A stretch of 64,000 bases of DNA, taken from contig JBDRXL010000004.1 in NCBI GenBank assembly GCA_039802865.1, positions 3,768 to 67,767 on the forward strand, read 5' to 3'. Positions 6,864 through 63,096 of this stretch are shown piece after piece. Source of the stretch: a candidate division WOR-3 bacterium. Lineage in GTDB: Bacteria; Hydrothermota; Hydrothermia; LBFQ01; DSFT01. Under the pieces are notes generated by a model. That model worked only from the letters and a program-made list of their open reading frames with translations, did not search any database and was not told where the DNA came from. Both the position numbers and the translations under genes were made by a program. How positions within the stretch are numbered: the first letter of the stretch is position 1; each line of letters begins with the position of its first letter.

Positions 6864-6866
6864 TTT

Positions 6867-6899: not shown

Positions 6900-6903
6900 A
6901 GTT

Positions 6904-8676: not shown

Positions 8677-8694
8677 GGGCAAGAGCGCCCCTAT
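8677..8694. terminator. Bidirectional hairpin AGGGGCAAGAGCGCCCCT between convergent genes
   Basis: 6-bp GC stem AGGGGC/GCCCCT. It overlaps the stop codons of 6904..8676 (+) and 8691..10148 (-). Confidence 0.45.
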
Positions 8695-10651: not shown

Positions 10652-10653
10652 AT

Positions 10654-10725
<72 letters not shown>

Positions 10726-10790
10726 AATAACTTTGATAATTTTAAGGCATAAATTTTAAAAATTCAAAAAACATTAAATAAATATCAAAA

Positions 10791-15886: not shown

Positions 15887-15927
15887 CTCTATGCTTTAAA
15901 ATTTTAAGTAGTTAGTAGTATCATTGT

Positions 15928-23455: not shown

Positions 23456-23460
23456 ATTGA

Positions 23461-23497
23461 AATTTTAAAGCTTATTGAAACTTTAAAATTTTAAAAC
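23461..23497. promoter_or_regulatory. Paired palindromic elements in the 43-bp divergent intergenic region (M1 peptidase / trxB)
   Basis: AAATTTTAAAGCTTAT reads toward the minus gene as GCTTTAAAATTTCAAT-ATG. CTTTAAAATTTTAAAACT-ATG reads toward trxB. Confidence 0.5.
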
Positions 23498-23498
23498 T

Positions 23499-24423: not shown

Positions 24424-24440
24424 GCTTTAAAATTTCAATT
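24424..24440 (+). promoter_or_regulatory. GCTTTAAAATTTCAATT element immediately upstream of the sufS ATG (TAAAAT then 7 nt then ATG)
   Basis: The identical 17-mer precedes the lysS ATG at 53798-53814 and the 21464..23455 ATG. Confidence 0.5.
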
Positions 24441-25661: not shown

Positions 25662-26028
25662 AATACTCTACAATTGAATTTAAACTTGCTCTTACAGAAC
25701 AATATTTATTTTGTGATAAAGAAACCGCCCTTTCAATTTTCTCTCTTTCTTTATCTAAATCTTTTCCATAAAACTTATAAATAAGTTTAATATATTCATA
25801 TTTTCTTGGATGCTCTTGTGCTCTTTTACCATCTGCAATAATCTCAAATCTATCATACTGGACTCTCATTTTATTTAAAATTTCAACAATATCTATACCA
25901 GTGCATCCAATTAGTGCCATAAGAAGAAGTTCCATAGGTCTTGGCGTATTCTCATCCATTATTAACTTTCTTCCTGTTTCACTCTCAAATAAAAAATTAT
26001 CATCTTTATATTCAAGTTTAACAATCAT
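25639..26028 (-). CDS. OsmC/Ohr family peroxiredoxin-like protein
   Basis: ELLLMALIGCTGIDIV motif with the conserved Cys. 129 aa. Convergent 23-nt overlap with sufS. Confidence 0.75.
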   Translation of the reverse strand: MIVKLEYKDDNFLFESETGRKLIMDENTPRPMELLLMALIGCTGIDIVEILNKMRVQYDRFEIIADGKRAQEHPRKYEYIKLIYKFYGKDLDKEREKIERAVSLSQNKYCSVRASLNSIVEYSIEIFEV

Positions 26029-26030
26029 CT

Positions 26031-26246
26031 TTACCTCCTTATAAGAAAGAAAATTAGAGTAAAAATCAAACTTAATATAATTGAAATTAAAATTGATGTG
26101 CCAAGCGGAAAGTAAAATGTAAAATTATCTTTTTGAATTAATATATCACCTGGCAGTTTAAACTTTGGAAAAAGAATAATTAAAAAACCAAATATAAGAA
26201 AAACAATTCCAATTATAATAAATAATTTTCCAAGTTCTGAAAACAT
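26031..26246 (-). CDS. DUF2905-family small membrane protein
   Basis: 71 aa with two TM segments and a central PGDI...FYFPLG signature. Promoter palindrome CTTTAAAATTTAAAATT-ATG directly upstream overlaps the stop of the upstream gene. Confidence 0.55.
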   Translation of the reverse strand: MFSELGKLFIIIGIVFLIFGFLIILFPKFKLPGDILIQKDNFTFYFPLGTSILISIILSLIFTLIFFLIRR

Positions 26247-26250
26247 AATT

Positions 26251-28314: not shown

Positions 28315-28739
28315 TATTTAAATAAATTCAATATCTCCTCATCACCTAACTCTTTTGCTAAGTCCAAAGGTGTTTCTCCTTTATTATTTTTAGCATTCTT
28401 ATCAGCACCAAATTTTATCAACTCCTTTATAACAAAATAATTTCCTTTTTTAATTGCTATATGTAATGGAGTATTTCCTTCATTATCCTTAACATTAACA
28501 TCTGCTTTATTTTCCAATAAAAACTTTATAATATCTTCATAATTATTTTCAACCGCTATATGCAATGGAGTTTTACCGTCTTTATTTTTGATATTTATAT
28601 CTGCTCCCTTATTTACAAAATCCTTTACTTTACTTAACTCACCTTTTGAAACACTTTCTAATAACTCTTGACTATATCCACTTTTATAAGCTTGATTACA
28701 AGAAATAACCAAAAGTATAAGAAAAATTAAACTTCTCAA
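28314..28739 (-). CDS. Ankyrin-repeat lipoprotein; TTG start 1 nt downstream of tRNA-Glu
   Basis: Three ANK repeats (GKTPLHIAVENNYEDIIKFLLENKADVN...). With TTG as initiator the N-terminus is MRSLIFLILLVISC, a lipoprotein signal with lipobox VISC. The ORF-track ATG at 28770-28772 lies inside the tRNA gene. Confidence 0.65.
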   Translation of the reverse strand: MRSLIFLILLVISCNQAYKSGYSQELLESVSKGELSKVKDFVNKGADINIKNKDGKTPLHIAVENNYEDIIKFLLENKADVNVKDNEGNTPLHIAIKKGNYFVIKELIKFGADKNAKNNKGETPLDLAKELGDEEILNLFK

Positions 28740-28811
28740 TGCCCCCAAGGGGAATCGAACCCCTGCCTCCACCTTGAAAGAGTGGTGTCCTAGCCGCTAG
28801 ACGATGGGGGC
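28740..28811 (-). tRNA. tRNA-Glu (anticodon TTC)
   Basis: Reverse complement GCCCCCATCGTCTAGCGGCTAGGACACCACTCTTTCAAGGTGG...GGTTCGATTCCCCTTGGGGGCA has the anticodon loop CTTTCAA and a T-loop GGTTCGATTCC. Confidence 0.85.
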
Positions 28812-28818
28812 AAGTTTG

Positions 28819-28843
28819 AAAATTTTAAAGCCTTAAAATTTCA
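28819..28843. promoter_or_regulatory. Double palindrome AAAATTTTAAAGCCTTAAAATTTCA between the tRNA-Glu 5' end and the divergent TTG-initiated M1 peptidase gene
   Basis: On the minus strand it reads GGCTTTAAAATTTTCAAACTT, ending 8 nt before the mature tRNA 5' G. On the plus strand CCTTAAAATTTCAAA ends directly before the TTG. Confidence 0.55.
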
Positions 28844-28845: not shown

Positions 28846-31341
28846 TTGTTAAACATAATTTTTTCCCTTGCAGACTTTCAGAATTTTATAAAATATGAAT
28901 TCTATGTAAAATTCATTGATTCACTTGATATTATTAAAGCACATCAAACAATATATTACATCAATAATTCAAAAGACACACTAAAACATATTGAACTTAA
29001 TTTATATGCTAATGCATTTAGACCAAATTCAAAATATAATCAAGATATTAAAAGAATAAGAAAAGTTAAAATAACCGAATTAGATAAAGCAAAGGAAAAA
29101 GAATTAGGATATATAAGAATTGATAGTTGTTCTGAAAAATTTGATACAAATGATATGTTTATGAAAGTTTATAAAACAATTTTACCAGGGGAAACTGCAA
29201 AGATTGAAATTAAATTTACATTAAAAATTCCTAAATTATTTGATAGACTTGGAAAAGATGAAGAGGAATATGAAATTACGCAATGGTATCCAAAAGTTGG
29301 AGTATATGATGAAAGGGGTTGGAGAACATATGGATATAGATATAATACGGAATTTTATGGAGATTATGCTGATTGGGAAGTTCATATAGAAGTTCCAAAA
29401 AATTATATTATAGGAGCAAGTGGATATTTAATAGATTCAACTATTTTAGACAGTATTAAAGTTTTACACTTTAAACTTGAAAAAGCACATGACTTTGCAT
29501 TTGTAATGAGTAAAAGATATAAAGTAAGAATATCTGAATTTAACAATATAAAAATTTATACCCTTTATTATTCAAATGATACATTATTTGCTAAATTATG
29601 CGAGCAACATGCGATAAATTCATTAAAAATGTTTAGCAATTATTTATATCCATATCCTTATAAAACATTAACTATTGTTGAAAGTCATTTAAGAGCGGGT
29701 GGAGGTATGGAATATCCAGCATTAATTTTAATTACAAATCCAAAAAGTTTAAGAAGGTTTGGAAGTTTAAGAAACTTCATGGATATAGAAAATTTAAAAG
29801 AATATTATACAGCAATTGTTGTCGCTCATGAAGTTGGACATCAATGGTTTTATGGAATTATTGGAAATGATGAAGCTTATGAAGCTTGGATGGATGAGGG
29901 TATGAATAGTTATCTTGAAAGTTATTATAATCAGAATTATTTTAGTTTGGATAGTATTTATAAGATGTTTGGAAAATTTTCAAAAATTATGAAATTTTAT
30001 TTAAATAATTATGATTTTAGACTTTTTAGTGATTACTTTGTATATTTAAATCCTTATGATGAGCCAATGTTAGGAAAACCTGCATGGGAAATGAAAAATT
30101 ATTGGCAAGTTTATAATAGGGGTAAAAACTTAATGTATGCCTTAAAAGATATTATGGGTGATAGTTTATTTGATTTATTATTAAAAGAATACTTTAAAGA
30201 ATATGCATTTAAGCATCCAAGAAGTGAAGATTTCTTTAATTTAGCAGAAAAAATTTCCCATTTAGATTTAAAAGAATTTCAAAATCAATGGCTATATTCA
30301 AAAGGATTACCAAATTATGGAGTATATAAAATTAAGGAGGGAACATTTCTAATAAAGGGAACTTATAATTATCCAATTTCTGCTTTAATTGATAATAAAA
30401 TTATAAAAGTTAAACCTGATACTATTATAAAAGCAAATAGTATTATTTTAGACCCATTTAATAGAACACTTGAAATAGATGAATGGGATAATACATATCC
30501 AAGAAGATTTGAAATTAAACCATTCTTTACAATTCCTAAAATGGGCTATTATCAAATTTCATTTATACCAATTATATTTTATAATCCCTTGGATAATTAC
30601 TTTTTTGCTCTTTACTTAAATGGTTCTGAAAGTTATAAAAGGCACTTTTTAAATTATGGTGGAAATACAAAAGGTGAATTTTATTTAAAATTTTCTGAAA
30701 ATTATTTCAATTCAAAAATTAAGTTTGTAAAAGGATTTTTTAGCTTTGAAACAGGAATTAAAACCAATTATATTAAAATTTTGCTCTTTAATCAATATAT
30801 TAACAATTTAGAATATCTTGATAGTAGTTATTTTGAGAAAATAAACAATTGGGGATTTGATATTAGTTTAAAATATAAATACTTTGAAAGTTTTCTAAAA
30901 TTAGCAAGAGATTTTAACAAAAATGAAAATTACTTTAAGTTTGGTTTTAATTACAAAAATCAATTTTTAGATAAAATTCAATTAAAGCTTTATTATCAAA
31001 GGATTTTAGGAAATTATCCAATCATTGAAAGAATTTATATAGATGGTGGATTTTTGTATCCCGATATATTTGAGATATTACTTCCATATAGTGGGAGTTG
31101 GTTTTATTCAAAATACATAGTATTTAATGATGGGATTTATTCAAAAAGAGGAGAAAATATATATTTTGATGAATTTATTTTAGGTGATATTAAATTTTCA
31201 ATTTTTCCTATGTTTGGCATTTATTCAACAATTGGCTATACTAATAAAATTTATTATGATTATGGAATTTATCTTAAAGTTTTTAAATTGGAGTGTAGAA
31301 TTTTTTATTCAAATAAAATCTCATTCATTTTTAGATTATAA
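28846..31341 (+). CDS. M1-family zinc metallopeptidase with long C-terminal beta-rich (barrel-like) extension; TTG start
   Basis: HEVGHQWFYG...E gluzincin motif at about residue 330. The last about 300 residues are Y/F/N-rich alternating strands ending ...YSNKISFIFRL. Confidence 0.65.
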   Translation: MLNIIFSLADFQNFIKYEFYVKFIDSLDIIKAHQTIYYINNSKDTLKHIELNLYANAFRPNSKYNQDIKRIRKVKITELDKAKEKELGYIRIDSCSEKFDTNDMFMKVYKTILPGETAKIEIKFTLKIPKLFDRLGKDEEEYEITQWYPKVGVYDERGWRTYGYRYNTEFYGDYADWEVHIEVPKNYIIGASGYLIDSTILDSIKVLHFKLEKAHDFAFVMSKRYKVRISEFNNIKIYTLYYSNDTLFAKLCEQHAINSLKMFSNYLYPYPYKTLTIVESHLRAGGGMEYPALILITNPKSLRRFGSLRNFMDIENLKEYYTAIVVAHEVGHQWFYGIIGNDEAYEAWMDEGMNSYLESYYNQNYFSLDSIYKMFGKFSKIMKFYLNNYDFRLFSDYFVYLNPYDEPMLGKPAWEMKNYWQVYNRGKNLMYALKDIMGDSLFDLLLKEYFKEYAFKHPRSEDFFNLAEKISHLDLKEFQNQWLYSKGLPNYGVYKIKEGTFLIKGTYNYPISALIDNKIIKVKPDTIIKANSIILDPFNRTLEIDEWDNTYPRRFEIKPFFTIPKMGYYQISFIPIIFYNPLDNYFFALYLNGSESYKRHFLNYGGNTKGEFYLKFSENYFNSKIKFVKGFFSFETGIKTNYIKILLFNQYINNLEYLDSSYFEKINNWGFDISLKYKYFESFLKLARDFNKNENYFKFGFNYKNQFLDKIQLKLYYQRILGNYPIIERIYIDGGFLYPDIFEILLPYSGSWFYSKYIVFNDGIYSKRGENIYFDEFILGDIKFSIFPMFGIYSTIGYTNKIYYDYGIYLKVFKLECRIFYSNKISFIFRL

Positions 31342-32443
31342 AATTTAAATCCAAAAATATAGCTTCATCATAGCGAATTCCAAATCTTAAAATTCTATTA
31401 TTAAATTTAACATCCTTAAATGCCTTAAGTAAAGGATAATAACTAATGGGCTCAATTAAAGGCAGATGAAATATATAATTCTCTTCCTTACTATACACAC
31501 TTAAACTGCCTTTTATTTTAATACCAATTGAAAGAAAGTTATTATTATTGTAATATGAGAAAATTAATTTCATTTCATCTGAATTAAGAAGTGAAGGAAT
31601 TTGATTATAAATTAGCCATTTTGAAACATAGCGCTTATTATTAAATGTATAAGGCATAGCATAAAGAAATTCAATTTTAAAGGGATGTTTTTTAAAATAT
31701 GACCAAAATGCTAATTTTGGAGGTGTTTTATTTATGGTTTCTTTACTATATTGAAAGTCATCAATTGAAATTTCAAATAGAAAATGTTGATTTTTATAAG
31801 TAAATGATAAAATTGTGTTAGTTTCATAACCTTCATTCCATTGTAAATTATAACTTGAAATAAAAGGATTAAAAAGACTAAATGGAATGTTTAGCTCATA
31901 TGGTAAAGGTAAAATTCCATAATCTGTAATATAAAAATCTCCAAATCTTGTATATATTTCAACTCTTCTTATTGTTAAATATCTATTTATTAAATAACCT
32001 GGTGGATAAATTTTTTGATTAAGACTAACACTTTCGGGAGTTATTATTGAATTTATTTGATTTAAATAAAAACTATACGAAAAACTTTCATTTTTATAAT
32101 TTATACTAATGCCATCAAGAGCAAAGTTATCCCAAAGAATAGCTTTTGATATTTTTAAAGCTCTTCTTCCTAATGTAATATAGAAATTATTAAAATTCAT
32201 AATTAAAAATGCATTTTCATAACCCCCATATAATCCATTAAATTCCCTTTTATTATAACTTCCCTTTTCATAAAATCCACCCACTTGTATCAAAAAATTC
32301 TTTTTATTTATATTTAACCCCAAAAATCTATGACTTTCAAATTCTAAAAATATCCCCTCTGGATAATCTAAAACAAACCTATTACCAAAACTATCAACTT
32401 CACTTAAAATCCAAAAGGAAATTAAAAAATTAAACATAAACAT
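31331..32443 (-). CDS. Hypothetical outer-membrane beta-barrel-like protein
   Basis: Hydrophobic N-terminus MFMFNFLISFWILS and aromatic-rich amphipathic strands throughout. No assignable family. Convergent 11-nt overlap with the M1 gene. Confidence 0.3.
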   Translation of the reverse strand: MFMFNFLISFWILSEVDSFGNRFVLDYPEGIFLEFESHRFLGLNINKKNFLIQVGGFYEKGSYNKREFNGLYGGYENAFLIMNFNNFYITLGRRALKISKAILWDNFALDGISINYKNESFSYSFYLNQINSIITPESVSLNQKIYPPGYLINRYLTIRRVEIYTRFGDFYITDYGILPLPYELNIPFSLFNPFISSYNLQWNEGYETNTILSFTYKNQHFLFEISIDDFQYSKETINKTPPKLAFWSYFKKHPFKIEFLYAMPYTFNNKRYVSKWLIYNQIPSLLNSDEMKLIFSYYNNNNFLSIGIKIKGSLSVYSKEENYIFHLPLIEPISYYPLLKAFKDVKFNNRILRFGIRYDEAIFLDLNFII

Positions 32444-32461
32444 ACTTTAAAATTTTAAACT
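32444..32461. promoter_or_regulatory. 18-bp divergent intergenic region consisting only of the palindrome ACTTTAAAATTTTAAACT
   Basis: ATG of the minus gene at 32443 and TTG of the plus gene at 32462. Reads as xTTTAAAATTTTAAAxT on both strands. Confidence 0.5.
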
Positions 32462-32728
32462 TTGAGAAAATTACTTTTAATTTTTACAATTATATTTAAT
32501 ATTAATGCAATTGTTCTTTCAAGTTTTCACAATCATTTTCATTATTCAAAATTTGAAAATTGTTTAGTTTTAAATTATCAAAATAACTCACCTAATTTTA
32601 ACAGCTTTGAAATCAAGATTGAAAAGCCATTAAAAATTTTTGAAATTTTATTATCTTTTAAAAATGAAGAATTTAAATTAACTTATATAACAGAACTCAA
32701 AATCCGCTCACCACCAATCATATCATAA
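32462..32728 (+). CDS. Hypothetical small secreted protein (TTG start)
   Basis: Signal-peptide-like N-terminus (M)RKLLLIFTIIFNINAIVLS. 88 aa. Confidence 0.3.
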   Translation: MRKLLLIFTIIFNINAIVLSSFHNHFHYSKFENCLVLNYQNNSPNFNSFEIKIEKPLKIFEILLSFKNEEFKLTYITELKIRSPPIIS

Positions 32729-38149: not shown

Positions 38150-38166
38150 AGGGGCAAATAGCCCCT
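38150..38166 (-). terminator. Hairpin AGGGGCAAATAGCCCCT overlapping the stop codon of the S8 peptidase gene, 9 nt upstream of the cysS ATG
   Basis: 6-bp GC-rich stem with a 5-nt loop. Weak U-tract on the minus strand. Confidence 0.35.
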
Positions 38167-42505: not shown

Positions 42506-43082
42506 TCCTCAATTCTTTAACAATAGGCTCCTCATCTCTATATCCACAATTTAAAACAAATGCCACTTGCCATTTATTATAATCCATAGCTAAAAAATCT
42601 TCTATTAGTTCTTTTTCTACACTTTTACTTGTAAATGTAACACTTCCAGTATCAAGACCTTCTGCTCTCGCTTGAATCATTATAGCTTGTGCTATTATCC
42701 AACTAACAGAAAAATGATAATTTTTATTATTTTTTAAATCCGTAAGTCCAATGAACATAATAGGAGCTCCACCAAGTGTTTTTATAAATTCCTTTATAAA
42801 TTCTTTATACCAATCCTTTAAATTATCTGGAACAATATTATATAAAACCGCCAAATCCCTTGCTACTGAATAAGTTTCATTTATGATATTTACTGCCCTT
42901 TCCCTTGCCCAATATTGTAAAATTATTAACTTAAATGGAATTGGAAAATCTTGTAATATAAAAAATGGAACTTCTGAAATTCTTCTAATAGCATCTTCTG
43001 TTGGCATAATAGATTTATATTTCCTTATCGTTCTTCTACTTTCAATAGTCTTAAATACAACATTTGGAAGTCTTGTAATCAT
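42483..43082 (-). CDS. Nitroreductase-family (FMN-dependent) protein, tandem paralog B
   Basis: Same motifs as 41891..42505. 23-nt overlap with paralog A. Confidence 0.7.
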   Translation of the reverse strand: MITRLPNVVFKTIESRRTIRKYKSIMPTEDAIRRISEVPFFILQDFPIPFKLIILQYWARERAVNIINETYSVARDLAVLYNIVPDNLKDWYKEFIKEFIKTLGGAPIMFIGLTDLKNNKNYHFSVSWIIAQAIMIQARAEGLDTGSVTFTSKSVEKELIEDFLAMDYNKWQVAFVLNCGYRDEEPIVKELRSGIYEIY

Positions 43083-43588
43083 TCAATCCTCCATATTATA
43101 GCTTCTCTATTTGGTAATTTTGGTTCTATCTTAATCGCTGGATAGCCAAGCAGCAAAATAGCAAAAAACTCATATTCCTGAGGATTTATATTAAATTCAT
43201 TATATATATAATCCTTAAAATTCTCATTCAACTGAAATATCACCTCAGAAACAATACCATAACTTATTGCTTGAATTCTCATATTATATATAGCAGCAGA
43301 AGTGGAACCATATTGAGTTAATTGATTATATTCTTCTTTAACTTTTGCACAAAAGCATAAAATTATAGTATTAGCTTTTTTGTCTAATTTTTTTGATATG
43401 CTTAAAGCTTTATCTCCTGTAATTGCTATGAATTTCCAAGGTTGTGGGGGATTTAAACCATAAGGTGCATATGTTCCAGCTTTTAATATATTTTCTATAA
43501 TATCCTTAGGAATGGGCTTTAAAGCAAACTTATCAGTATTCTTCAATAGTCTGTTTAGCTCATATAAAATTTTACCTTCCATAGGCAT
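43079..43588 (-). CDS. Divergent nitroreductase-fold protein (third member of the operon)
   Basis: GLNPPQPWKFIAI and TIILCF segments are typical of the nitroreductase superfamily. Promoter element GCTTTAAAATTTTAATGCCT-ATG upstream. ATGA overlap with the next gene. Confidence 0.55.
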   Translation of the reverse strand: MPMEGKILYELNRLLKNTDKFALKPIPKDIIENILKAGTYAPYGLNPPQPWKFIAITGDKALSISKKLDKKANTIILCFCAKVKEEYNQLTQYGSTSAAIYNMRIQAISYGIVSEVIFQLNENFKDYIYNEFNINPQEYEFFAILLLGYPAIKIEPKLPNREAIIWRIE

Positions 43589-43608
43589 TAAAATTTTAAA
43601 GCTATCAT

Positions 43609-44238
43609 ATGTATAAATTTAAAAATTTTGTTCATCCTTTATTTGCCTCAAACACATATGTAATTTATAAGGAAAATAGTAATGAATGCATTATTATTGA
43701 CCCAACAGATATTGCTTTTAGAGATTTAGCAAAGTTTTTAGAAAATAATAATTTAAAGCCAATAAGTATCATAAACACCCATGGGCATTATGACCATATT
43801 AGTGGAATTGATTTAGTAAGAGAAACTTATAAAATTCCACTTTATATACATAAAAATGAAGAAGAATTTTTAAGAAATCCCGAACTAAATTTATCTATTT
43901 ATCTTGGAAAGAATTTAATTATAAAGCCTGCTGAATACTATGTTAATGATAATGATGAAATTATGGGCTTTAAAATTATACATACCCCAGGACATACCCC
44001 TGGGAGTATATGCTTGAAAGTAGAAAATATTTTAATAGTTGGCGATTTGATATTTTTAAATTCCATAGGAAGGGTGGATTTACCGCTTTCAAGCGAAGAA
44101 GATATGAGAAATTCACTAATTAAAATTTTAAATTACATAGATGAAGATACGACAATTTTGCCAGGTCATGGAAGAAGTTTTAAATTAGAAGATTTAAAAA
44201 GAGAAAATGAAATACTATGGAGCTTTATAAATTTTTAG
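43609..44238 (+). CDS. MBL-fold metallo-hydrolase (glyoxalase II-like)
   Basis: HGHYDHISG (HxHxDH) and downstream His/Asp ligands. Confidence 0.8.
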   Translation: MYKFKNFVHPLFASNTYVIYKENSNECIIIDPTDIAFRDLAKFLENNNLKPISIINTHGHYDHISGIDLVRETYKIPLYIHKNEEEFLRNPELNLSIYLGKNLIIKPAEYYVNDNDEIMGFKIIHTPGHTPGSICLKVENILIVGDLIFLNSIGRVDLPLSSEEDMRNSLIKILNYIDEDTTILPGHGRSFKLEDLKRENEILWSFINF

Positions 44239-48502: not shown

Positions 48503-48559
48503 AATCAAAATTTTAAAGTATTCAATTTAATTCTTTTTCAACTCTTTTTATATCCGCCT

Positions 48560-48745
48560 CAACCATTATTTCCCAAAATCACCTAACAAAATATCTACCT
48601 CCGCAGGTCTATAAAATTTTCCCAAACAATATCAAAACCAACAATTCTAAAAACTAATTCAACAAATTCTAATAATACTAGAATTACCACTTTCAAGAAG
48701 AAACTTTGCTAAATAAGCTCCATCTTGCCCTCTAATTCTAGTAAA
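48560..48745 (-). pseudogene. gmd: Decayed remnant of GDP-mannose 4,6-dehydratase (gmd): N-terminal and C-terminal fragments with an internal deletion
   Basis: Minus-strand translation gives ...NFTRIRGQDGAYLAKFLLESGNSSIIRIC* (compare Gmd [21 protein letters not shown]) and YRPAEVDILLGDFGK* (compare Gmd [21 protein letters not shown]). No start codon and multiple stops. The promoter palindrome at 48742-48753 still precedes it. Confidence 0.5.
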
Positions 48746-48748
48746 ATT

Positions 48749-50508: not shown

Positions 50509-50511
50509 CGC

Positions 50512-50527
50512 AAGCTTTATAATTTTA
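50512..50527. promoter_or_regulatory. AGCTTTATAATTTTAG element in the 24-bp divergent rsmI/50533 intergenic region (contains a perfect TATAAT)
   Basis: Reads GCTTTATAATTTTAGGGCT-ATG toward 50533 and CCCTAAAATTATAAAGCTTGCG-ATG toward rsmI. Confidence 0.45.
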
Positions 50528-50532
50528 GGGCT

Positions 50533-55886: not shown

Positions 55887-56514
55887 AATTATAATATTGT
55901 TAATACCATTAATTTCCTTTATTATTGGAGTTTTCTTTTATCCATATATGCCAGAGAAAATCGAAATACATTGGAATACAAACTTTCAAGTAGATCAGTA
56001 TGTATCAAAGTTCTGGGGTTTGTTTTCACTTCCTATCACACTTTTATTACTTAGTTTCCTTTTTATAATCATTCCAAAAGTTGATCCATTAAGGGAGAAT
56101 TATAAAAAGTTTGAAAAATACTATAAAGGTTTTTGTTTTCTAATTCTAATTTTTTTATTTTTAACCTATTTATGGTTAATTGCTTGGAATATTGGTATAA
56201 GAATAATAAGCTTAAGTGCTTTTCTCTCAATTAGTCTTGGAATAATATCCTTTTATCTTGGTATTCTTTTAGAAAATGTAAAACAAAATTGGTTTATAGG
56301 AATTAGAACCCCTTGGACTTTAAGCAATGAAAAAGTTTGGGATAAAACTAATAAAACTGCTGGGAAATTATTTAAATTTTCATCAATAATAATTTTTCTT
56401 GGTGTAATTTTTCCAAAATATCTAATTTTTTTAATTGTAATTTTAGCAATTTTAATTAGCGTTTATTCAATCATTTACTCCTACCTTCTATATCAAAAAA
56501 TTACTAACCTTTAA
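55873..56514 (+). CDS. SdpI/YhfL-family membrane protein
   Basis: Multi-TM with the family signature NWFIGIRTPWTLSNEKVW. Confidence 0.5.
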   Translation: MKHFEIIILLIPLISFIIGVFFYPYMPEKIEIHWNTNFQVDQYVSKFWGLFSLPITLLLLSFLFIIIPKVDPLRENYKKFEKYYKGFCFLILIFLFLTYLWLIAWNIGIRIISLSAFLSISLGIISFYLGILLENVKQNWFIGIRTPWTLSNEKVWDKTNKTAGKLFKFSSIIIFLGVIFPKYLIFLIVILAILISVYSIIYSYLLYQKITNL

Positions 56515-58486
56515 TATTTTCCCAAACAAGCACAGCAATATCCTTAACATTTATATTAACATTTTTCCTATTAACACCATCAGATATCATAACATTACAA
56601 AATGGACAAGATACAGAAATCATATGTGGTTCCTTATTTAACAATTCCTCAACTCTTTCTATATTTATTCTCTTTCCAATTTTCTCCTCCATCCACATTC
56701 TACCTCCCCCTGCTCCACAACAAAAGCTATTATCTTTACTTCTATCTGCCTCTATTAAATTTCCAATATAATTTATAATTTCTCTTGGTTGCTCAATTAT
56801 ATTATTATGCCTTGATAAATAGCAAGGGTCATGATAAATAATTTTTTGAGCATTTTTATTTAGTTTAATTTTCCCTTCTTTTATGAGATTTAATATAATT
56901 TCAGAATGATGATAAACCTCTACATTTAAACCAAAGGATGTATATTCATTTTTTATAGTATTATAGCAGTGGGGACAAATTGTAATAATTTTTTTAATAG
57001 AGTATTTTTGAAATGTTTGAATATTTTCAAATGCAAGTGTTTGAAATAAAAATTCATTACCTGTTCTTCTTGCACTATCACCAGTGCATTTTTCCTCATC
57101 TCCAAGAACAGCAAATTTAACATTAGCCTTATTTAATATATTAACTAATGCCTTAATTGTATTTTGAGCCTTGTTATCATAAACCCCAGCACATCCCATC
57201 CACAATAAATATTCAAACTCATATTTTGGATTTTCTTTTAAAATTACTACATTTAATTCCTTAGCAAATTTATATCTTTCATTCTTTGGAGCATTCCAGG
57301 GATTAAATTGATTTTCCATCCCTTTATAACTATTATTTAAACTACTTGGATAAATTCCATTTTCAAAAAGTCCCCTTCTATAATTTATTATTAAATCTAA
57401 TTGATTTATACCTACGGGACAACTATGAACACAAGCTCCACAACTTGTGCAAGACCAAACTGCATCTTCACCCACTACTAATCCTAATAATTTATCTTCC
57501 TTTGTTTCTAAGTATTCAAAAGCATAATCCCTTGTATCAAGAACAATTTTCTTAGGGTCTAAGGGCTTTCCTGTTGCATAAGCAGGACAAACACTTGTGC
57601 ACCTTCCACATATAGTGCAAGCATCTACCATTAATAATTTATACCAAGGCAAATCCTTTAAATAATGATAACCTGTCTTTATCTCCTCTTCACTTACATT
57701 TTCATTACTTAATAACTCAATTAAATTCTTATTTACATCATGTTTTGCACTTAGCTCCTTTTTATAAAAAATCAAATTTAATGTAGAGCTAAATATATGA
57801 AATAATTTTGAATAGGGAATATATCCAATAAATATCATTGTAGTCCAAGCATGAATATTCCAAATAATTTTATGCCAAAATGAAATTTCATATTCTGATA
57901 AATTATAAAACAATAAATGAGATAAAAAATAGCCAAAAAATGAAAATTTTTCAAATTCTGGCTTAAAGTAAGCAATCCTTAATGCTTCTAATAAAAATCC
58001 TTCAATAGCCAAAATTAGCAATAAAATTAAAATTACATTATCTTCAAATATATTTCTTAAAAATGTTGGAAGGAAGAAAGCTCTTCTTAATAATGCTAAA
58101 ATAATTCCAAAAATTAAGAAAACACCTGCTAAATCTGAAATAAATGATAAAAATAAATAAAAATCTCCATAAATAAACTTAATTCCTAAATCCATTTGAA
58201 TACCAACAAGAATTGTAGTTATTGTTAAAATAATCATAGCCCAAAATATAGGAACATGTGAAAACAAACCAAATTTCCTTTTAGAAACCTTATATTGAAA
58301 TAAAACATTTTTTATAAATGAGCCTATATTTAAACTTATTCTCTCTTTCTTACCAAGAGCCCAAATCCTAAAATGTCTATAAAATCCATATATAAAAAAA
58401 GCAAGAGAAATTATAAAAGTTATATACATTAGAGCAAATTCAAAGTGAGATATATTCCATCCAAGTGGTCTTGTAATTTGCTCCAT
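56504..58486 (-). CDS. Membrane-bound Fe-S oxidoreductase: NarI/HdrE-like heme-b membrane domain fused to HdrD/GlpC-like 2x[4Fe-4S] plus CCG domains
   Basis: About 5 N-terminal TM helices, ferredoxin motifs CTICGRCTSVCP and CTSCGACVHSCP, and cysteine-rich CCG-type repeats (CxxCxxCxxxC, CCGAGGG). Confidence 0.6.
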   Translation of the reverse strand: MEQITRPLGWNISHFEFALMYITFIISLAFFIYGFYRHFRIWALGKKERISLNIGSFIKNVLFQYKVSKRKFGLFSHVPIFWAMIILTITTILVGIQMDLGIKFIYGDFYLFLSFISDLAGVFLIFGIILALLRRAFFLPTFLRNIFEDNVILILLLILAIEGFLLEALRIAYFKPEFEKFSFFGYFLSHLLFYNLSEYEISFWHKIIWNIHAWTTMIFIGYIPYSKLFHIFSSTLNLIFYKKELSAKHDVNKNLIELLSNENVSEEEIKTGYHYLKDLPWYKLLMVDACTICGRCTSVCPAYATGKPLDPKKIVLDTRDYAFEYLETKEDKLLGLVVGEDAVWSCTSCGACVHSCPVGINQLDLIINYRRGLFENGIYPSSLNNSYKGMENQFNPWNAPKNERYKFAKELNVVILKENPKYEFEYLLWMGCAGVYDNKAQNTIKALVNILNKANVKFAVLGDEEKCTGDSARRTGNEFLFQTLAFENIQTFQKYSIKKIITICPHCYNTIKNEYTSFGLNVEVYHHSEIILNLIKEGKIKLNKNAQKIIYHDPCYLSRHNNIIEQPREIINYIGNLIEADRSKDNSFCCGAGGGRMWMEEKIGKRINIERVEELLNKEPHMISVSCPFCNVMISDGVNRKNVNINVKDIAVLVWENIKG

Positions 58487-58490
58487 ATTG

Positions 58491-58515
58491 TAAATTTTAA
58501 AGCTTTAAAATTTTA
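58491..58515. promoter_or_regulatory. Overlapping double palindrome TAAATTTTAAAGCTTTAAAATTTTA filling the 32-bp divergent intergenic region
   Basis: Minus reading is GCTTTAAAATTTACAAT-ATG (56504..58486). Plus reading is GCTTTAAAATTTTAACT-ATG (58519). Confidence 0.55.
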
Positions 58516-58518
58516 ACT

Positions 58519-59802
58519 ATGAAAATTTCTGTATCAGGAATTAGAGGAGTTTATCCTACACAAATGAATCCTTATAGTGCTTTAATTTGGACAAATGCAT
58601 TTTGTAATTTCTTAGAAGGAAAAAATATTATTATATCAAGAGATACAAGATATTCTGGAAAAGTTTTATATCCAATTGTTTTAAATACTGCACTCTCTAC
58701 TTGTAAAAATGTTTATTCACTTTCAATATGCCCAACACCAACAAGCTTATTTATAATAAAAGAACTAAATTTAGATGGTGGAATCATAATAACTGCAAGC
58801 CATAATCCAAGCGAATATAATGCATTAAAATTAGCTATAAAAAATAGATTTTTATTTGAAGAAGAGCTTGAAAAATTAAAAGAAAAATTGAATAATTTAG
58901 AATTTAGTAGTTGTATAGGAGAAGTAATTTATGCAGAAAATAGTTATAAAATTCATCTTGATAAAATTGTAGATTTTGTAGGTTTTAAATTATATAATAG
59001 TTCAATGAAAGTTGCTATTGATTGTGTGAATGGTGCTGGATATAAAGCATTTCCAGAGCTTCTTGAAAAATTTGGAATTAAAAATATTATTAAAATTAAT
59101 TGTGATAATTCTGGTATTTTTACAAGAAATCCAGAACCGAGAAAGGAACATTTAAAACATTTAGAACAATTACTAAATGAATGTGATTTAGTATTTGCAA
59201 CTGACCCTGATGGAGATAGATTATTATTTGGGGTTAAAAATTATGGTTTGCTTTCAGAAGAATATACCCTCTTAATTGGAATTTCTGAAATTCTTGAAAG
59301 GAAAAAAGGAGATATTGTTGTTAATTATTCTACAACAATGCTTGTTGAATTTATAGCTAAAAAATACAATGTTAATGTTATTCGCTCAAAAGTTGGTGAA
59401 GCAAATGTTCTTAAAAAAATTTATCAAACAAATAGTATTGTAGGTGGGGAAGGGAATGGTGGGGTTATATATCCTGCCTTTAATGAAACAAGAGATGGGC
59501 TTCTTTCAATGGGTTTAATTTTAAATAGTTATATTGAAGGGAGAATTTTTAAAATTTTAGATGAATTACCAAAAACATATTTTATAAAGGAAAAGGTAGA
59601 AAATTTTGAATTTGAAAAAATTAAAGAGATTTTTTTAAATGAATTTGGGGATTTTGAAAAGAATTTTGAAGATGGCTTATATTTAAGAAAAAATAATAGC
59701 TGGATACATATAAGAGCATCAAATACAGAACCAATTATTAGAGTTTATGCAGAAAGCCTTGAAAAAGAATTTGTAGATTATGTTAAAAGTTTAATAAAAT
59801 GA
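58519..59802 (+). CDS. Phosphohexomutase (phosphoglucosamine/phosphomannomutase family)
   Basis: Active-site TASHNPSEYNALK (phosphoserine loop), metal-binding TDPDGDR and sugar-binding GGEGNGG. Confidence 0.8.
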   Translation: MKISVSGIRGVYPTQMNPYSALIWTNAFCNFLEGKNIIISRDTRYSGKVLYPIVLNTALSTCKNVYSLSICPTPTSLFIIKELNLDGGIIITASHNPSEYNALKLAIKNRFLFEEELEKLKEKLNNLEFSSCIGEVIYAENSYKIHLDKIVDFVGFKLYNSSMKVAIDCVNGAGYKAFPELLEKFGIKNIIKINCDNSGIFTRNPEPRKEHLKHLEQLLNECDLVFATDPDGDRLLFGVKNYGLLSEEYTLLIGISEILERKKGDIVVNYSTTMLVEFIAKKYNVNVIRSKVGEANVLKKIYQTNSIVGGEGNGGVIYPAFNETRDGLLSMGLILNSYIEGRIFKILDELPKTYFIKEKVENFEFEKIKEIFLNEFGDFEKNFEDGLYLRKNNSWIHIRASNTEPIIRVYAESLEKEFVDYVKSLIK

Positions 59803-61229
59803 GTTTTTTATTTAGTTTTATAGTGATAAATGAAGTGATGAATTATCCAAGTGATGAAAGTTGTGGAGAATTTGTTGAAATTTATAATAATTCAAGTGAT
59901 ACTATTTATTTAAATGGCTTTAAAATAATTGATGGAGAAGATATTGATTTTATTACAACTCTTCAAAATCCACCAAATTATATATCTTCAAGAACCTTCA
60001 TATTACCTTATGAATATACGCTTATAATTGATCCTGATTACTTTTCTGGAAATTGTTCAGTTAATTATAATTTACAAGGAAATGTTTTAATAGTTGATGA
60101 TGCATCAGTTGGAAATGGTATTGCAAAAAATGACAGCATTTATATATTAAATCAAAATAATGATACAATTGCAAAATTTCAAAAACCCATATTAAATATC
60201 CAAATGGGTTATTCTGTTGAAAGGATAAATTTTGATATAGATGAATGGGGGATTAGTAATGTTTTAAATGGAACTCCAAACTACCAAAATTCTATATTTT
60301 CAAATAGCTTGATAAAAGTTGATACTATTTTTATAGTTTCAAACATTTTAAAGATTATATTAAAGAATTTATCAAATTCCACATTTTCAGATAATATAAA
60401 AATCATATCAGGTGATACACTCAATTTTAACATAACTATAAATCCAAATAGCACTTATGAAATTGACTTAAATTTAAATACTTTAAAATCCATAAAGCTT
60501 GAAATTCTTTCTCAAAACTTCAATAAATTCTTTTATATTCCAATAACTTATCCAACTTTAATTATAAATGAAATTGAATATGATGCACAAGTTGAATGGT
60601 TTGAAATATATAACAATTCAGAAATAGAAGTTGATTTATCAAAATTTAAAATAAGAGATTTAGCAAAGAATGAATTTCATTTAAGTGGAAAAATTGCTCC
60701 AAAGGGATTTAAAGTTTTTAGAGCGGATAGTTTTCCAGATTTTATTACCCTTAATGATAACTATGAAAGTTTAATTTTACTTTCTGAATTTAATTTAATG
60801 TTTGATAGTGTTTATTATACATCTTCATATGGAGGAAAAGAAAATTATACACTTGAAAAAATAAATCCAAGTTTAAAAGGTTATTTAAGTGATAGTTGGA
60901 AAAGCTCACTTTATGAATTTGGAACACCAAATAAAGTAAATAGTGTTTATATTTCTGATAGCTCATTAAATTTAGAGATTTTTATTTCAAATAAAAGGGT
61001 TAAAAGAGGTGAGATTTTAACAATTTCAGCATATTTAAGTCAAAACGATGATATTGATGTTTATCTTTTTGATGATATTGGAAGGCTTATAAATAAGGTT
61101 TATAGTGTAAGAAATACAAATAGAGTAATTTTTAATTTAAATACTTCAAATTTAAGAGGAGGAATTTATATTATTCTGTTTAAAGGCACAAAATTTAATA
61201 AAAAAGCTTATTTTAGAATTGTTGAGTAA
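59799..61229 (+). CDS. Lamin-tail-domain (LTD) repeat protein with T9SS C-terminal sorting domain
   Basis: Two LTD-like modules (IVINEVMNYPSDE...FVEIYNNSSDTIYLNGFKI and LIINEIEYDAQVEWFEIYNNSEIEVDLSKFKI). Tail ...GGIYIILFKGTKFNKKAYFRIVE. Confidence 0.45.
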   Translation: MSFLFSFIVINEVMNYPSDESCGEFVEIYNNSSDTIYLNGFKIIDGEDIDFITTLQNPPNYISSRTFILPYEYTLIIDPDYFSGNCSVNYNLQGNVLIVDDASVGNGIAKNDSIYILNQNNDTIAKFQKPILNIQMGYSVERINFDIDEWGISNVLNGTPNYQNSIFSNSLIKVDTIFIVSNILKIILKNLSNSTFSDNIKIISGDTLNFNITINPNSTYEIDLNLNTLKSIKLEILSQNFNKFFYIPITYPTLIINEIEYDAQVEWFEIYNNSEIEVDLSKFKIRDLAKNEFHLSGKIAPKGFKVFRADSFPDFITLNDNYESLILLSEFNLMFDSVYYTSSYGGKENYTLEKINPSLKGYLSDSWKSSLYEFGTPNKVNSVYISDSSLNLEIFISNKRVKRGEILTISAYLSQNDDIDVYLFDDIGRLINKVYSVRNTNRVIFNLNTSNLRGGIYIILFKGTKFNKKAYFRIVE

Positions 61230-62046
61230 AAAATTCCAATGAAATATCCACCCATTTTGAAGAATGAGTAATTGCTCCAACTGAAATATAATCAACACCC
61301 AATAAAGCAATATCTCTTACATTATTTAAATTCACTCCACCTGAAACTTCAATTTTTAACTTTCCATTTACTAAATTCATAGCTTGTTTAATCATTTCTA
61401 AACTAAAATTATCAAGCATAACTATATCAATAGGATATTTTAAAACAATTTCCAATTCACTTAAATTTGAAACTTCAATTTCAATCTCTTTGCCAAATGG
61501 TTTATTTTTAAGAGCTAATTTTATAGCGTTTTCAATTCCCCCAACCGCTCTAATATGATTATCCTTAATTAAAATTCCATCAAATAAACTAAATCTATGA
61601 TTATATCCACCCCCTATTCTAACTGCATATTTTTCAAGATTCCTATAAATTGGTGTTGTTTTTCTTGTGTCAAGAATTTTACAATTTGTGCCTTCAATAG
61701 CTTTTACAAAATTATAAGTATTTGTAGAAATACCAGAAAGTTTTTGAAGAAAATTTAAAGCAATTCTCTCACATCTTAATATATCTTTTATATTTCCCTT
61801 AACTTCTGCAATAATTTCACCTTTCTTTACAAAATCTCCATCCTTAAAAAATAATTCTACTTCAATTGAAGGATTTACATACTTAAAAACTTCCTTAAAG
61901 ATATCAATACCACATAAAATTAGATTTTCCTTTGAAATTGCTATAAATTTTCCATTTCCTTTTATTTCAAGAATTTCTGTTGTTAAATCTCCATAAAAAC
62001 TATCTTCTAAAATTGCATATTCAATGAGCTTTCTTATATTAAGCAT
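61213..62046 (-). CDS. nadC: Nicotinate-nucleotide pyrophosphorylase (quinolinate phosphoribosyltransferase)
   Basis: N-terminal ...ILEDSFYGDLTT... and the QPRTase TIM-barrel pattern. 277 aa. Confidence 0.85.
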   Translation of the reverse strand: MLNIRKLIEYAILEDSFYGDLTTEILEIKGNGKFIAISKENLILCGIDIFKEVFKYVNPSIEVELFFKDGDFVKKGEIIAEVKGNIKDILRCERIALNFLQKLSGISTNTYNFVKAIEGTNCKILDTRKTTPIYRNLEKYAVRIGGGYNHRFSLFDGILIKDNHIRAVGGIENAIKLALKNKPFGKEIEIEVSNLSELEIVLKYPIDIVMLDNFSLEMIKQAMNLVNGKLKIEVSGGVNLNNVRDIALLGVDYISVGAITHSSKWVDISLEFFTQQF

Positions 62047-62051
62047 TTATA

Positions 62052-62068
62052 GTTTAAAATTTTAAAGC
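62052..62068. promoter_or_regulatory. Palindrome GTTTAAAATTTTAAAGC in the 24-bp divergent nadC/alr intergenic region
   Basis: ATG of nadC at 62046 and TTG of alr at 62071. Confidence 0.5.
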
Positions 62069-62070
62069 TT

Positions 62071-63096
62071 TTGGCAATTGCTTATATAAATTCAAAAAAT
62101 TTATTATATAATTTTGAGCAATTTAAAAACTATACAAAAACAGAAATAATTCCTGTTTTAAAATCAAATGCATATGGTCATGGTATTAAAGAAGTTTTTA
62201 GTGTTTTAAAAGATAAAGTTAAAAAAATAGCAGTTTTTGATTTAGACGAAGCTTTGACATTAAACTTTGAAAATACATTAATTTTAAAACCTTTATATAA
62301 TAAGGATGAAATTCTTCAAGCTTATCAAAATAATTTTATATTCAACTTATGCTCACATAAGCAATTAGAAATTATAAAAAAACTTAAAATTAAACCCCGT
62401 GTTGAAATTGAAATAGATACAGGAATGAATAGAACTGGAATATGGTATGAAGAATTTGAAAATTTTTATAATGAGGCTAAAAATGATGTTAAGGTTGAAG
62501 GTATTTATTCACATTTTGCAAATGCTGATATAGAAGAAGATAATTTTAGTAGTATTCAATATGAAAGATTTTTAAAAGTTTCAAAAGATATAAGTGTAAA
62601 AAAACATATCTCAAATACTGCTTCAAGTTTAAGATACAATTATTATTTAGACTTTATAAGAGTTGGGATTGGAATTTATGGAATTTATCCAGCGATATTT
62701 TTAAAAAAATTTTTAAATTTAAAACCTGTTATGAGTTTAAAAGCAGAAGTTATACAAGTAAAGTTTTTAAAAAAAGGTGAAAGTGTTGGATATGGAAGAA
62801 CATTTATAGCAAATAAAGATATGAAAATTGCTATTATTTCATTTGGTTATGCAGATGGATTTCATATTGAATGCTCTAATATAACTGAAGTATTTGCAAA
62901 GAATAAATATAGGAAAGTGCTTGGAAGAATATCTATGGATATGAGTGTAATTGAAGGTGATGATTTAGAAGAAGGAGATTTAGTAGAAATTTGGGGTGAA
63001 AATATTAATATTTTAGACATATCTCAAAGAATAGGGAAAATTCCTTATGTTTTATTAACATCCTTAGGAAATAGAGTGAAAAGAGTTTTAATTTAA
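62071..63096 (+). CDS. alr: Alanine racemase (TTG start)
   Basis: PLP-lysine motif PVLKSNAYGHG and a C-terminal beta domain. 341 aa. Confidence 0.85.
   Translation: MAIAYINSKNLLYNFEQFKNYTKTEIIPVLKSNAYGHGIKEVFSVLKDKVKKIAVFDLDEALTLNFENTLILKPLYNKDEILQAYQNNFIFNLCSHKQLEIIKKLKIKPRVEIEIDTGMNRTGIWYEEFENFYNEAKNDVKVEGIYSHFANADIEEDNFSSIQYERFLKVSKDISVKKHISNTASSLRYNYYLDFIRVGIGIYGIYPAIFLKKFLNLKPVMSLKAEVIQVKFLKKGESVGYGRTFIANKDMKIAIISFGYADGFHIECSNITEVFAKNKYRKVLGRISMDMSVIEGDDLEEGDLVEIWGENINILDISQRIGKIPYVLLTSLGNRVKRVLI

Follow-up and report, generated by a model that had tools for sequence, protein, structure and literature searches.

In a gene-dense window of 64 kb from a candidate division WOR-3 bacterium (the window being the whole stretch of DNA analysed), at least six divergent gene pairs are separated, start to start, by spacers of 18-32 bp made solely of an A/T palindrome. 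On each strand of these spacers, there is probably one copy of a directional promoter that does without a -35 element and whose messenger RNAs (mRNAs) would be leaderless or carry leaders of 1-6 nt. An earlier note on this DNA had described four such spacers, at 4548-4567, 32444-32461, 58487-58518 and 62047-62070 (20, 18, 32 and 24 bp, respectively), as bidirectional promoters in which one symmetric element serves both strands. All four are present as described, but they were undercounted, as the spacers at 43589-43608 and 50509-50532 are of the same kind. At the level of the sequence, the spacers do appear to be promoter DNA for both genes; the notion of a single symmetric element, in contrast, has to give way to that of two directional 12-bp copies, because the same element is found alone, always pointing at the gene, before about 20 tandem genes and three transfer RNA (tRNA) genes. 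The motif, its enrichment, orientation, spacing and conservation, and its distribution complementary to that of Shine-Dalgarno (SD) sites are observed; from them we infer recognition by sigma-70, the positions of the transcription start sites (TSSs), translation of leaderless mRNAs, including from TTG, and mutual exclusion of the two orientations. The predicted near-leaderless nature of the mRNAs is the key consequence of this organization and was absent from the earlier note.

The functional unit is the 12-bp sequence GCTTTAAAATTT, which comprises a GCTT extension, a TAAAAT -10 box and a TT tail. In its broader form, the element reads (a)(a/t)GCTT-TAAAAT-TTy, with an extension G-16/C-15/T-14/T-13 and a tail T-6/T-5. 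Eighteen exact copies of GCTTTAAAATTT are present in the 64 kb, for about 0.1 expected by chance according to our composition-based estimate, and 37 copies with at most one mismatch, for 6.4 expected in shuffled sequence; the 14-mer TTTAAAATTTTAAA occurs five times in the window for 0.15 expected. No dinucleotide-preserving shuffle reached the observed motif counts. Among the 37 copies, 23 precede the start of an open reading frame (ORF) of at least 80 aa by 3-16 nt, the baseline for random positions being 4.9% (p = 2e-21). Inspection of the 45 nt upstream of every ORF listed revealed GCTTTAAAATTT(y) before about half of the ORFs of the window, oriented toward the gene. In a five-genome sample made of the window and of L007, L008, L009 and L011, the element is found at 55 of 107 genes (~51%). 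The exact copies in tandem contexts are all co-oriented with the downstream gene (7/7). A solitary element at 24424-24435 (+) occupies an 18-bp gap before a cysteine desulfurase-type gene (ATG 24441), with 7 nt to the start and a flank that is not palindromic. The downstream flank of such tandem copies is not a mirror image of the upstream one, as illustrated by GCTTTAAAATTTCAATT-ATG at 24424 and GCTTTAAAATTTTTGTT-ATG at 10792. The genes that carry the element are functionally unrelated and include those for aminoacyl-tRNA synthetases, pyruvate:ferredoxin oxidoreductase, peptidases, TrmFO, NadC and Alr.

The contribution of the flanks was assessed with instances chosen by the presence of TAAAAT and proximity to an ORF start only, in order to avoid circularity. 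When the 59 start-proximal TAAAAT hexamers were compared with the 738 others, G-16 was found in 54% versus 16%, C-15 in 73% versus 14%, T-14 in 83% versus 44%, T-13 in 86% versus 41%, T-6 in 93% versus 52%, and T-5 in 83% versus 40%. The bare hexamer occurs about 800 times in 128 kb, i.e., once per ~160 bp, and is therefore too common to mark anything, so that specificity is carried by the flanks, with their rare G and C and their T residues. The hexamer itself conforms to TAnnnT; it is TAAAAT nearly everywhere, TATAAT at 50518-50523 and, as CTTTATAATTT, in relatives. The TGn motif of extended -10 promoters (T-15 G-14) is not what is conserved, since position -15 is C in 73% and position -14 is T in 83% of the start-proximal hexamers, with a conserved G at -16 (54%).

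The presence of the element before tRNA genes identifies it as a transcription signal, not a translation signal. The tRNA-Glu gene at 28740-28811 (-) is preceded by an exact copy of GCTTTAAAATTT at 28820-28831 (-), with 10 nt left between its -10 box and the mature 5' end; this copy is back-to-back with the plus-strand element GCCTTAAAATTT of an M1 peptidase gene (28830-28841; TTG 28846), with which it has a GC in common. For the tRNA-Phe gene at 10654-10725 (-), a variant of the element, GCCTTAAAATTA, is found at 10737-10748 (-), and 13 nt separate its -10 box from the 5' end of the mature tRNA. An exact copy is also present before a tRNA-Val gene in L009, at a distance of 15 nt.

No -35 element accompanies these -10 boxes. 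Between -60 and -19, the information content of 58 aligned start-proximal copies from the five genomes peaks at 0.39 bit, with no enrichment for the G or the C of TTGACA; a G is found at -33 in only two of the 58, which does not correspond to a canonical sigma-70 promoter with TTGACA 16-18 bp upstream. When the surroundings of two spacers were scanned for generic -35/-10 promoters, the matches did not exceed chance level. In the tight pairs, the -35 position would fall 12-20 nt inside the opposite ORF. The earlier note had pointed out that there is no room for a -35 element outside the flanking coding sequences; this geometry is correct, and none is conserved anywhere either. It had left the choice between a dispensable -35, as in extended -10 promoters, and promoters located inside the neighboring ORFs, and the lack of a conserved -35 fits the former, not the latter. 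No terminator was found in a scan around two spacers, which indicates that the palindromes are not terminators. An Rfam search of the whole window at the gathering threshold, and of two non-coding gaps at permissive E-values, detected just two tRNAs, and thus no known RNA in or near the spacers.

The position of the element relative to the start codons has marked implications for the mRNAs. For the 55 genes that possess it, the distance from the end of the hexamer to the start codon ranges from 4 to 16 nt, with a mode of 7; it is 6-9 nt in 43 of the 58 start-proximal copies. So short a distance predicts mRNAs that are leaderless or nearly so, which would also account for the missing SD sequences: SD-like sites of the GGAG/GAGG type precede none of the 55 element genes, compared with 12 of the 52 others (p = 8e-5). 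These other genes are almost all internal to operons, with 4-nt overlaps, and the SD sequences found among them are GGAGG and the like. A Pribnow box near the starts of first genes, together with SD sites confined to internal or leadered genes, is the hallmark of the group C pattern. Among element genes, ATG starts peak at spacings of 7 and 9 nt and TTG starts at 8 nt, mostly with an A in front (tttcaaaa-TTG, tttgaaaa-TTG); irrespective of the type of start codon, a purine is fixed at the seventh or eighth nucleotide after the hexamer. This purine would be the initiating nucleotide, and the transcripts would accordingly begin with 5'-AUG, with 5'-A-UUG, or with 2-6 extra nt.

TTG starts were found to be enriched among element genes (14/54, versus 4/49 for the others; p = 0.02), and their clustering at a spacing of 8 nt with an A in front implies 5'-A-UUG transcripts, if transcription starts as predicted. 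ATG, TTG, and GTG interchange at the identical codon among orthologues. A 1692-aa ORF (15893-21006, +) with no Pfam match has its element at 15893-15904; the distance to the TTG start is atypical (25 nt), with intervening stop codons, and this would represent a rare leadered case without an obvious SD. At two sites on the minus strand (28737-28811 and 10649-10725), a tRNA gene directly abuts an ORF, which recalls the tRNA punctuation of mitochondria. Immediately after the discriminator A of tRNA-Glu (28740) comes TTG AGA AGT..., which encodes MRSLIFLILLVISC, a lipoprotein signal peptide, and then ankyrin repeats, in an ORF that extends to 28314 (-); a 134-aa ORF (-) opens with an ATG at 10651, just past the end of tRNA-Phe (10654). 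Processing of the tRNA 3' ends would release leaderless mRNAs at both junctions.

The following mechanism is proposed. The promoter would be of the housekeeping type and would be used throughout the genome of this very compact, hot-spring WOR-3 bacterium of the Hydrothermia class. A sigma-70-type -10 hexamer, TAAAAT, would be read together with the G-16/C-15/T-14/T-13 extension and the T-6/T-5 tail, and transcription would start 7-8 nt past the hexamer, at the A of ATG, at the A just before TTG, or at a purine 1-6 nt upstream of the start codon. Operon-internal genes would be translated by way of SD sequences or overlapping stop and start codons. With no -35 element and no 5' untranslated region (UTR) to fit, diverging genes could be packed until their promoters overlap, and, both mRNAs of a pair being leaderless, the entire intergenic region could shrink to 18-32 bp. 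RNA polymerase would occupy one orientation at a time. Mutation of one half-site would then mainly abolish transcription in the direction served by the -10 box affected, the start-site region of the other direction being merely altered.

All ten divergent junctions of the window contain the element, nine of them on both sides. Two registers recur among the pairs, in addition to looser spacings of 40-43 bp. In the crossed register, whose consensus is GCTTTAAAATTTTAAAGC, the plus- and minus-strand elements start 17 bp apart, in spacers of 18-24 bp, and the two TAAAAT boxes overlap by their last two bases (AT), as do 4553-4558 and 4557-4562. The C-15 of each promoter is the complement of the predicted +1 G of the opposite promoter, and the predicted TSSs are 15 bp apart. 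The copies of the window differ from GCTTTAAAATTTTAAAGC at one or two flank positions, the exact 18-mer being absent from it. In the back-to-back register, AAATTTTAAAGCTTTAAAATTT, only a central GC is common to both elements, and the predicted TSSs are ~31 bp apart. In both registers, opposite-strand -10 elements overlap or abut inside one pseudo-symmetric sequence, as in bidirectional promoters based on -10 symmetry.

The back-to-back register is exemplified by the 32-bp spacer 58487-58518 (ATTGTAAATTTTAAAGCTTTAAAATTTTAACT), which lies between a gene for an Hdr/CCG-type Fe-S protein (56504-58486, -) and that of a GlmM-like mutase (58519-59802, +). The earlier claim that the spacers consist only of the palindrome holds in general, but this one lacks the exact 14-mer, which is matched there with 1-2 mismatches, and has instead, in the other register, a perfect 22-bp palindrome, AAATTTTAAAGCTTTAAAATTT, at 58492-58513, centred on GC. 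The GCTTTAAAATTT element of the GlmM-like gene is at 58502-58513 (+), with its -10 box TAAAAT at 58506-58511, 7 nt before ATG 58519, and a predicted TSS at 58518/58519, which would make the mRNA leaderless. That of the Hdr-like gene is at 58492-58503 (-), with its -10 box at 58499-58494, 7 nt before ATG 58486, and a predicted TSS at 58487/58486. The two elements have the central GC (58502/58503) in common. The same register is found in the orthologous spacer of L007, at 28820-28841 between the tRNA-Glu and peptidase genes, and at 8553 in L008.

The crossed register is found at 4548-4567, 32444-32461, 62047-62070 and 43589-43608, as well as in relatives, for instance at 12604-12621 in L007 and 16925-16942 in L008. 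The 20-bp spacer 4548-4567 (AGCTTTAAAATTTTAAAGAT) separates the gene of a bactofilin-domain membrane protein (3531-4547, -) from trmFO (4568-5878, +); its interdigitated elements span 4549-4560 (+, -10 box 4553-4558) and 4566-4555 (-, -10 box 4562-4557). Both boxes end 9 nt from the start codon, and a distance of 15 bp separates the predicted TSSs, G 4565 (+) and G 4550 (-). In the 18-bp spacer 32444-32461 (ACTTTAAAATTTTAAACT), between a gene for a 370-aa hypothetical protein (31331-32443, -) and an 88-aa ORF with a TTG start (32462-32728, +), the interdigitated boxes at 32448-32453 (+) and 32457-32452 (-) are each 8 nt from the start codon. The 88-aa ORF opens with a signal-peptide-like MRKLLLIF, and this pair has the weakest support, as neither ORF has family matches. 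The 24-bp spacer 62047-62070 (TTATAGTTTAAAATTTTAAAGCTT), between nadC (61213-62046, -) and alr (62071-63096, +, TTG start), has interdigitated elements at 62051-62062 (+, -10 box 62055-62060, 10 nt to TTG) and 62068-62057 (-, -10 box 62064-62059, 12 nt to ATG). In the 20-bp spacer 43589-43608, between the genes of a nitroreductase-family protein (43079-43588, -) and an MBL-fold hydrolase (43609-44238, +), the interdigitated pair GCATTAAAATTTTAAAGC is located at 43585-43602.

The 24-bp spacer 50509-50532 has a plus-strand element, GCTTTATAATTT, at 50514-50525, in which the consensus TATAAT (50518-50523) replaces TAAAAT, facing CCCTAAAATTAT on the minus strand. In the looser pairs, the elements are separate. 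They are at 23471-23460 (-) and 23480-23491 (+) in the 43-bp spacer 23456-23498, which shows that promoter overlap is not obligatory for a divergent pair, and back-to-back at 6881-6870 (-) and 6886-6897 (+) in the 40-bp spacer 6864-6903, between a yceG/mltG-like gene (-) and the pyruvate:ferredoxin oxidoreductase gene (+).

Identical copies of the proteins encoded in the window are found in several metagenome-assembled genomes (MAGs) at NCBI, including GCA_039802925.1, and the relatives with 80-83% protein identity, which come from hot springs, are titled candidate division WOR-3 or Candidatus Hydrothermia. The gene set of the window is that of a diderm bacterium, with SecDF, TonB-dependent receptors, LapA and MltG/YceG. 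WOR-3 is presumably a member of the FCB group. The window has a GC content of 26%, and its 52 accepted ORFs form 51 junctions, the majority of which are overlaps or gaps of less than 45 bp. The cultured WOR-3 strain sy37, considered as an experimental proxy, is not close (60.6% GC, 2.39 Mb).

The element before the GlmM-like gene is kept in L007, L008, L009 and L011 (80-83% identity) despite different neighbors and start codons. In L007, which has 83% amino-acid identity to the window, the Hdr/GlmM spacer is conserved, and in both orthologous divergent pairs the element is retained while the flanks change. The NadC/Alr spacer of L007 measures 18 bp, as opposed to 24 bp in the window, as a result of a 6-bp deletion outside the palindrome, which is intact, and both genes begin with GTG. 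This indel (62047-62052 in the window, 12606 in L007) brings the nadC spacing from 12 to 6 nt and the predicted leader from ~5 nt to none; the length of the leader thus seems free to vary between 0 and 6 nt. In 53 kb of Bacteroidetes contigs of 29-31% GC, no copy of the element was found, even with one mismatch allowed.

A scan of metagenome contigs for the 18-mer palindrome yielded 87 loci. At about 17 of them, all of 24-27% GC, ORF starts are located 8-16 nt from both hexamers; at none of the ~65 other loci (30-63% GC), which were regarded as chance hits, are both hexamers flanked by ORF starts. A protein similarity search between the palindrome-bearing contigs and the window detected no orthologues, the lineage of these contigs being inferred from GC content and motif use only. 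In two metagenome contigs of 42-44% GC, L056 (255-272) and L069 (7638-7655), GCTTTAAAATTTTAAAGC is exactly placed between two divergent start codons, as CAT-GCTTTAAAATTTTAAAGCC-ATG, and is flanked by a 405-aa mutase-like ORF and an ORF of 84-108 aa. The organism is much less A/T-rich, and further genes of L069 have TATAAT 7-8 nt before ATG. This arrangement suggests that the same compact, bidirectional and potentially leaderless design exists in a second thermophile lineage, and hence that it is not confined to one.

Several other explanations of these observations were considered. The element might act in the RNA as an A/U-rich, SD-independent ribosome loading site, with promoters located inside the neighboring genes. 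The lack of SD sites at element genes would agree with this idea, as would the common use, by FCB-group relatives, of non-SD, A-rich signals near the start codon (group B; PMC6028130), and one above-threshold -35/-10 match is found inside trmFO, facing the left gene. It is nonetheless improbable, given that the element also precedes three tRNA genes, and that operon-internal genes lack it and use GGAGG, whereas group B signals are present at internal genes as well. In addition, the conserved G-16/C-15 and the invariant TA...T fit DNA recognition, and no conserved promoter is found upstream, generic promoter matches being at chance level. It is very improbable that the palindrome is instead an operator bound at gene starts by some abundant dimeric protein, be it a global repressor or a nucleoid-associated one, while the real promoters lie elsewhere. 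Perfect dyad symmetry over 14-22 bp is typical of dimeric regulators, and even unidirectional sites have a symmetric A/T core, AAAATTTT, but the tandem copies are asymmetric in their informative G/C flank, with all seven exact ones co-oriented with the gene. Moreover, the element lies as far from start codons and from tRNA 5' ends as a -10 box is expected to lie, replacement of TAAAAT by TATAAT is tolerated, no other conserved promoter signal is found upstream, and about half of all genes, with unrelated functions, do not constitute one regulon.

Mis-called start codons, with the true starts downstream and room for ordinary 5' UTRs with ribosome-binding sites, would make the spacers look deceptively short. 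The ORF list does report the longest ORF, and for the starts at 43588 and 48508 the spacing is better matched by another in-frame ATG located a few codons further on. This explanation is highly improbable, however, in view of the alignments of the flanking genes. Profiles align from residues 1-8 of TrmFO, the GlmM-like protein, Alr, NadC and a TrxR-like protein; with NCBIfam, residue 2 of TrmFO corresponds to profile position 3, residue 3 of the GlmM-like protein to position 4, residue 1 of Alr to position 1, and residue 8 of NadC to position 2. The Pfam alignment of the bactofilin-domain protein (4547) likewise begins with its first residues, and the GxGxxG motif of TrmFO begins at residue 8. 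Orthologues share the exact start position, be it ATG, GTG or TTG, with the protein conserved from codon 2; L007 retains both the Hdr/GlmM and the NadC/Alr pairs with start codons at identical positions but of another type (ATG to GTG, TTG to GTG). No SD-like sequence is present in the first codons. As far as these alignments indicate, the start codons are correct for most of the eight genes in the four pairs listed initially. Lastly, the genome is 74% A+T and the bare hexamer abounds in it, which could bring to mind low-complexity sequence arising by chance in a 26% GC genome. The probability of that is practically nil, as it is already refuted by the counts, which dinucleotide-preserving shuffles do not attain, and by the positional test, the element being locked to gene starts; it is also kept across species and absent from other low-GC genomes, namely the 53 kb of Bacteroidetes contigs.

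A number of observations weigh against directional promoters that yield leaderless mRNAs. Two exact copies of GCTTTAAAATTT, at 3140-3151 (+) and 13593-13604 (-), face no gene. On the minus strand within trmFO (4647-4618), the generic scan found a -35/-10 match of 10/12, which is not above chance there but could give the left gene a leadered transcript. TTG is the start codon of about a quarter of the element genes, and non-AUG codons such as TTG support leaderless translation poorly in model bacteria; some other initiation route may therefore operate. Spacings of 10-16 nt, as for nadC (12) and the gene at 43609 (14), imply short leaders, not zero. The primary sigma factor of the lineage was not found by tblastn among the sequences compared here, with regions 2-4 of E. 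coli RpoD for a query; the single match was in an unrelated contig of 38% GC. Recognition of GC at -16/-15, which is not the canonical TGn of extended -10 promoters, is a conjecture, and the TSS positions and bidirectional activity are predictions.

The claim that this architecture is unusual must be toned down in light of current knowledge, since bidirectional promoters based on -10 symmetry are documented, although what is found here is a compact, lineage-specific variant. Warman, Grainger and colleagues have shown that the near symmetry of -10 elements frequently makes bacterial promoters bidirectional; in E. coli, divergent TSSs are preferentially 18 bp apart, with 29, 23, 12, 10, and 7 bp also represented, and RNA polymerase binds in either orientation, one at a time, such promoters being preferentially used for mRNA pairs (bioRxiv 10.1101/2020.01.31.928960; PMC12825309). 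As in E. coli, A/T-rich -10 hexamers of opposite strands coincide or abut here, with divergent transcription being predicted. Positions 2 and 6 of the hexamer are paired in E. coli, whereas positions 5-6 (AT), for a distance of 15 bp, or just the upstream GC, for ~31 bp, are shared in our case. Both transcripts would be leaderless, the promoters have a GC extension and no -35, and they are near-invariant genome-wide; the E. coli work relies on TSS maps and in vitro transcription, while activity is predicted from sequence here.

Extended -10 promoters have a TGn motif in E. coli and a -16 TRTG region in Gram-positive bacteria. They resemble the element in having extra conserved bases upstream of the hexamer and a missing or dispensable -35. 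The bases differ, however, being G-16 and C-15 followed by T-14 and T-13 rather than T-15 and G-14, and a contact with sigma region 3.0 is conjectural. Bacteroidetes promoters are of the -7/-33 type, TAnnTTTG/TTTG, and share a T-rich extension downstream of the -10 TA as well as a presumably related (FCB-group) lineage. This type was rejected because of a one-base register shift (TAAAATTT versus TAnnTTTG), the lack of a terminal G and of a -33 TTTG, and the 53 kb without a copy. In the archaeon T. kodakarensis, bidirectional promoters have a shared TATA box and divergent TSSs 52 bp apart (bioRxiv 10.1101/2020.01.31.928960; PMC12825309), and the likeness lies in a symmetric A/T element between divergent, potentially leaderless genes of a thermophile. 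An archaeal TATA/BRE promoter is ruled out by the bacterial genes (TrmFO, Alr, SecDF, TonB-dependent receptors) and by the distance of 4-16 nt between the element and the start codons, which is in keeping with a -10 box; a TATA box at -26 could by no means be accommodated in spacers of this length.

In M. tuberculosis, the Pribnow box of leaderless genes is located 6-8 nt from the start, in agreement with the spacing found here; this corresponds to the group C pattern of GeneMarkS-2, and group B, with non-SD ribosome-binding sites, dominates in FCB-group genomes (PMC6028130). Genomes of the leaderless type belong mainly to Actinobacteria and Deinococcus-Thermus, with Aquifex among the examples of the 2011 survey of Zheng et al., which described a TA-like signal (PMC6028130; PMC3160421); the maximum share of TA-like genes in that survey was 46% (PMC3160421). 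The window resembles group C genomes in its Pribnow-type box near the first genes of operons and SD at internal genes, and differs from group C and TA-like genomes in its WOR-3 lineage, a near-invariant 12-bp motif instead of TAnnnT, frequent TTG starts, and a share of ~51% of the sampled genes. Both -10-symmetry bidirectional promoters and leaderless group C genomes are thus already known, and the arrangement described here is an unusually compact, lineage-specific variant. A literature search for divergent leaderless pairs with overlapping promoters found nothing directly comparable, and the WOR-3 genome literature examined does not discuss promoters or leaderless genes.

If the proposed promoters are functional, they would illustrate the degree of compression that promoters and 5' UTRs can reach in a free-living bacterium, with two promoters and two translation starts accommodated in 18 bp. 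Essentially no room would be left for operators, which would imply little transcriptional regulation and a built-in competition between divergent genes. Frequent leaderless expression would be extended to candidate division WOR-3, with a share at or above the maximum of the 2011 survey. In practice, gene starts and operons of these MAGs may be called by a precise rule, namely GCTTTAAAATTT with a -10 box ending 6-9 nt before the start codon, and a minimal bidirectional promoter of 18-22 bp would be suited for testing the ideas on orientation competition developed in E. coli. A bolder and rather doubtful proposal is that this single 12-bp, -35-independent promoter runs almost all transcription units through a new G-16/C-15 contact, that the crossed palindrome is an obligatory 15-bp orientation toggle between divergent housekeeping genes, and that the ribosome routinely initiates on 5'-AUG and 5'-A-UUG, including on mRNAs freed by tRNA 3' processing. 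If so, a bacterial expression system would have converged on mitochondrion-like or archaeon-like minimalism.

Short G+C-rich hairpins are found at gene ends in tiny gaps, at 3124-3139 (GCCCCAGATGGGGC), 8677-8690 (GGGCAAGAGCGCCC) and 38150-38165 (GGGGCAAATAGCCCC), and probably act as compact terminators; in several convergent gene pairs, by contrast, an overlap of 4-23 nt leaves no place for one. Of the two GCTTTAAAATTT copies that face no gene, the one at 3140-3151 is fused to the 3' arm of hairpin GCCCCAGATGGGGC and directed into the 3' end of 3152-3511, and the one at 13593-13604 is antisense within the ORF 13361-14350; they could be antisense promoters or chance by-products. Two long non-coding stretches, 48509-48748 (240 nt) and 26029-26250 (222 nt), are unusual for this genome and have no Rfam match. 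Each comes after a copy of the element with one mismatch, located where the upstream gene ends, at 48755-48744 (-) and 26264-26253 (-), respectively. The first could be a novel small RNA or a gene remnant, and the second could be a long, SD-containing leader of the 129-aa ORF 25639-26028.

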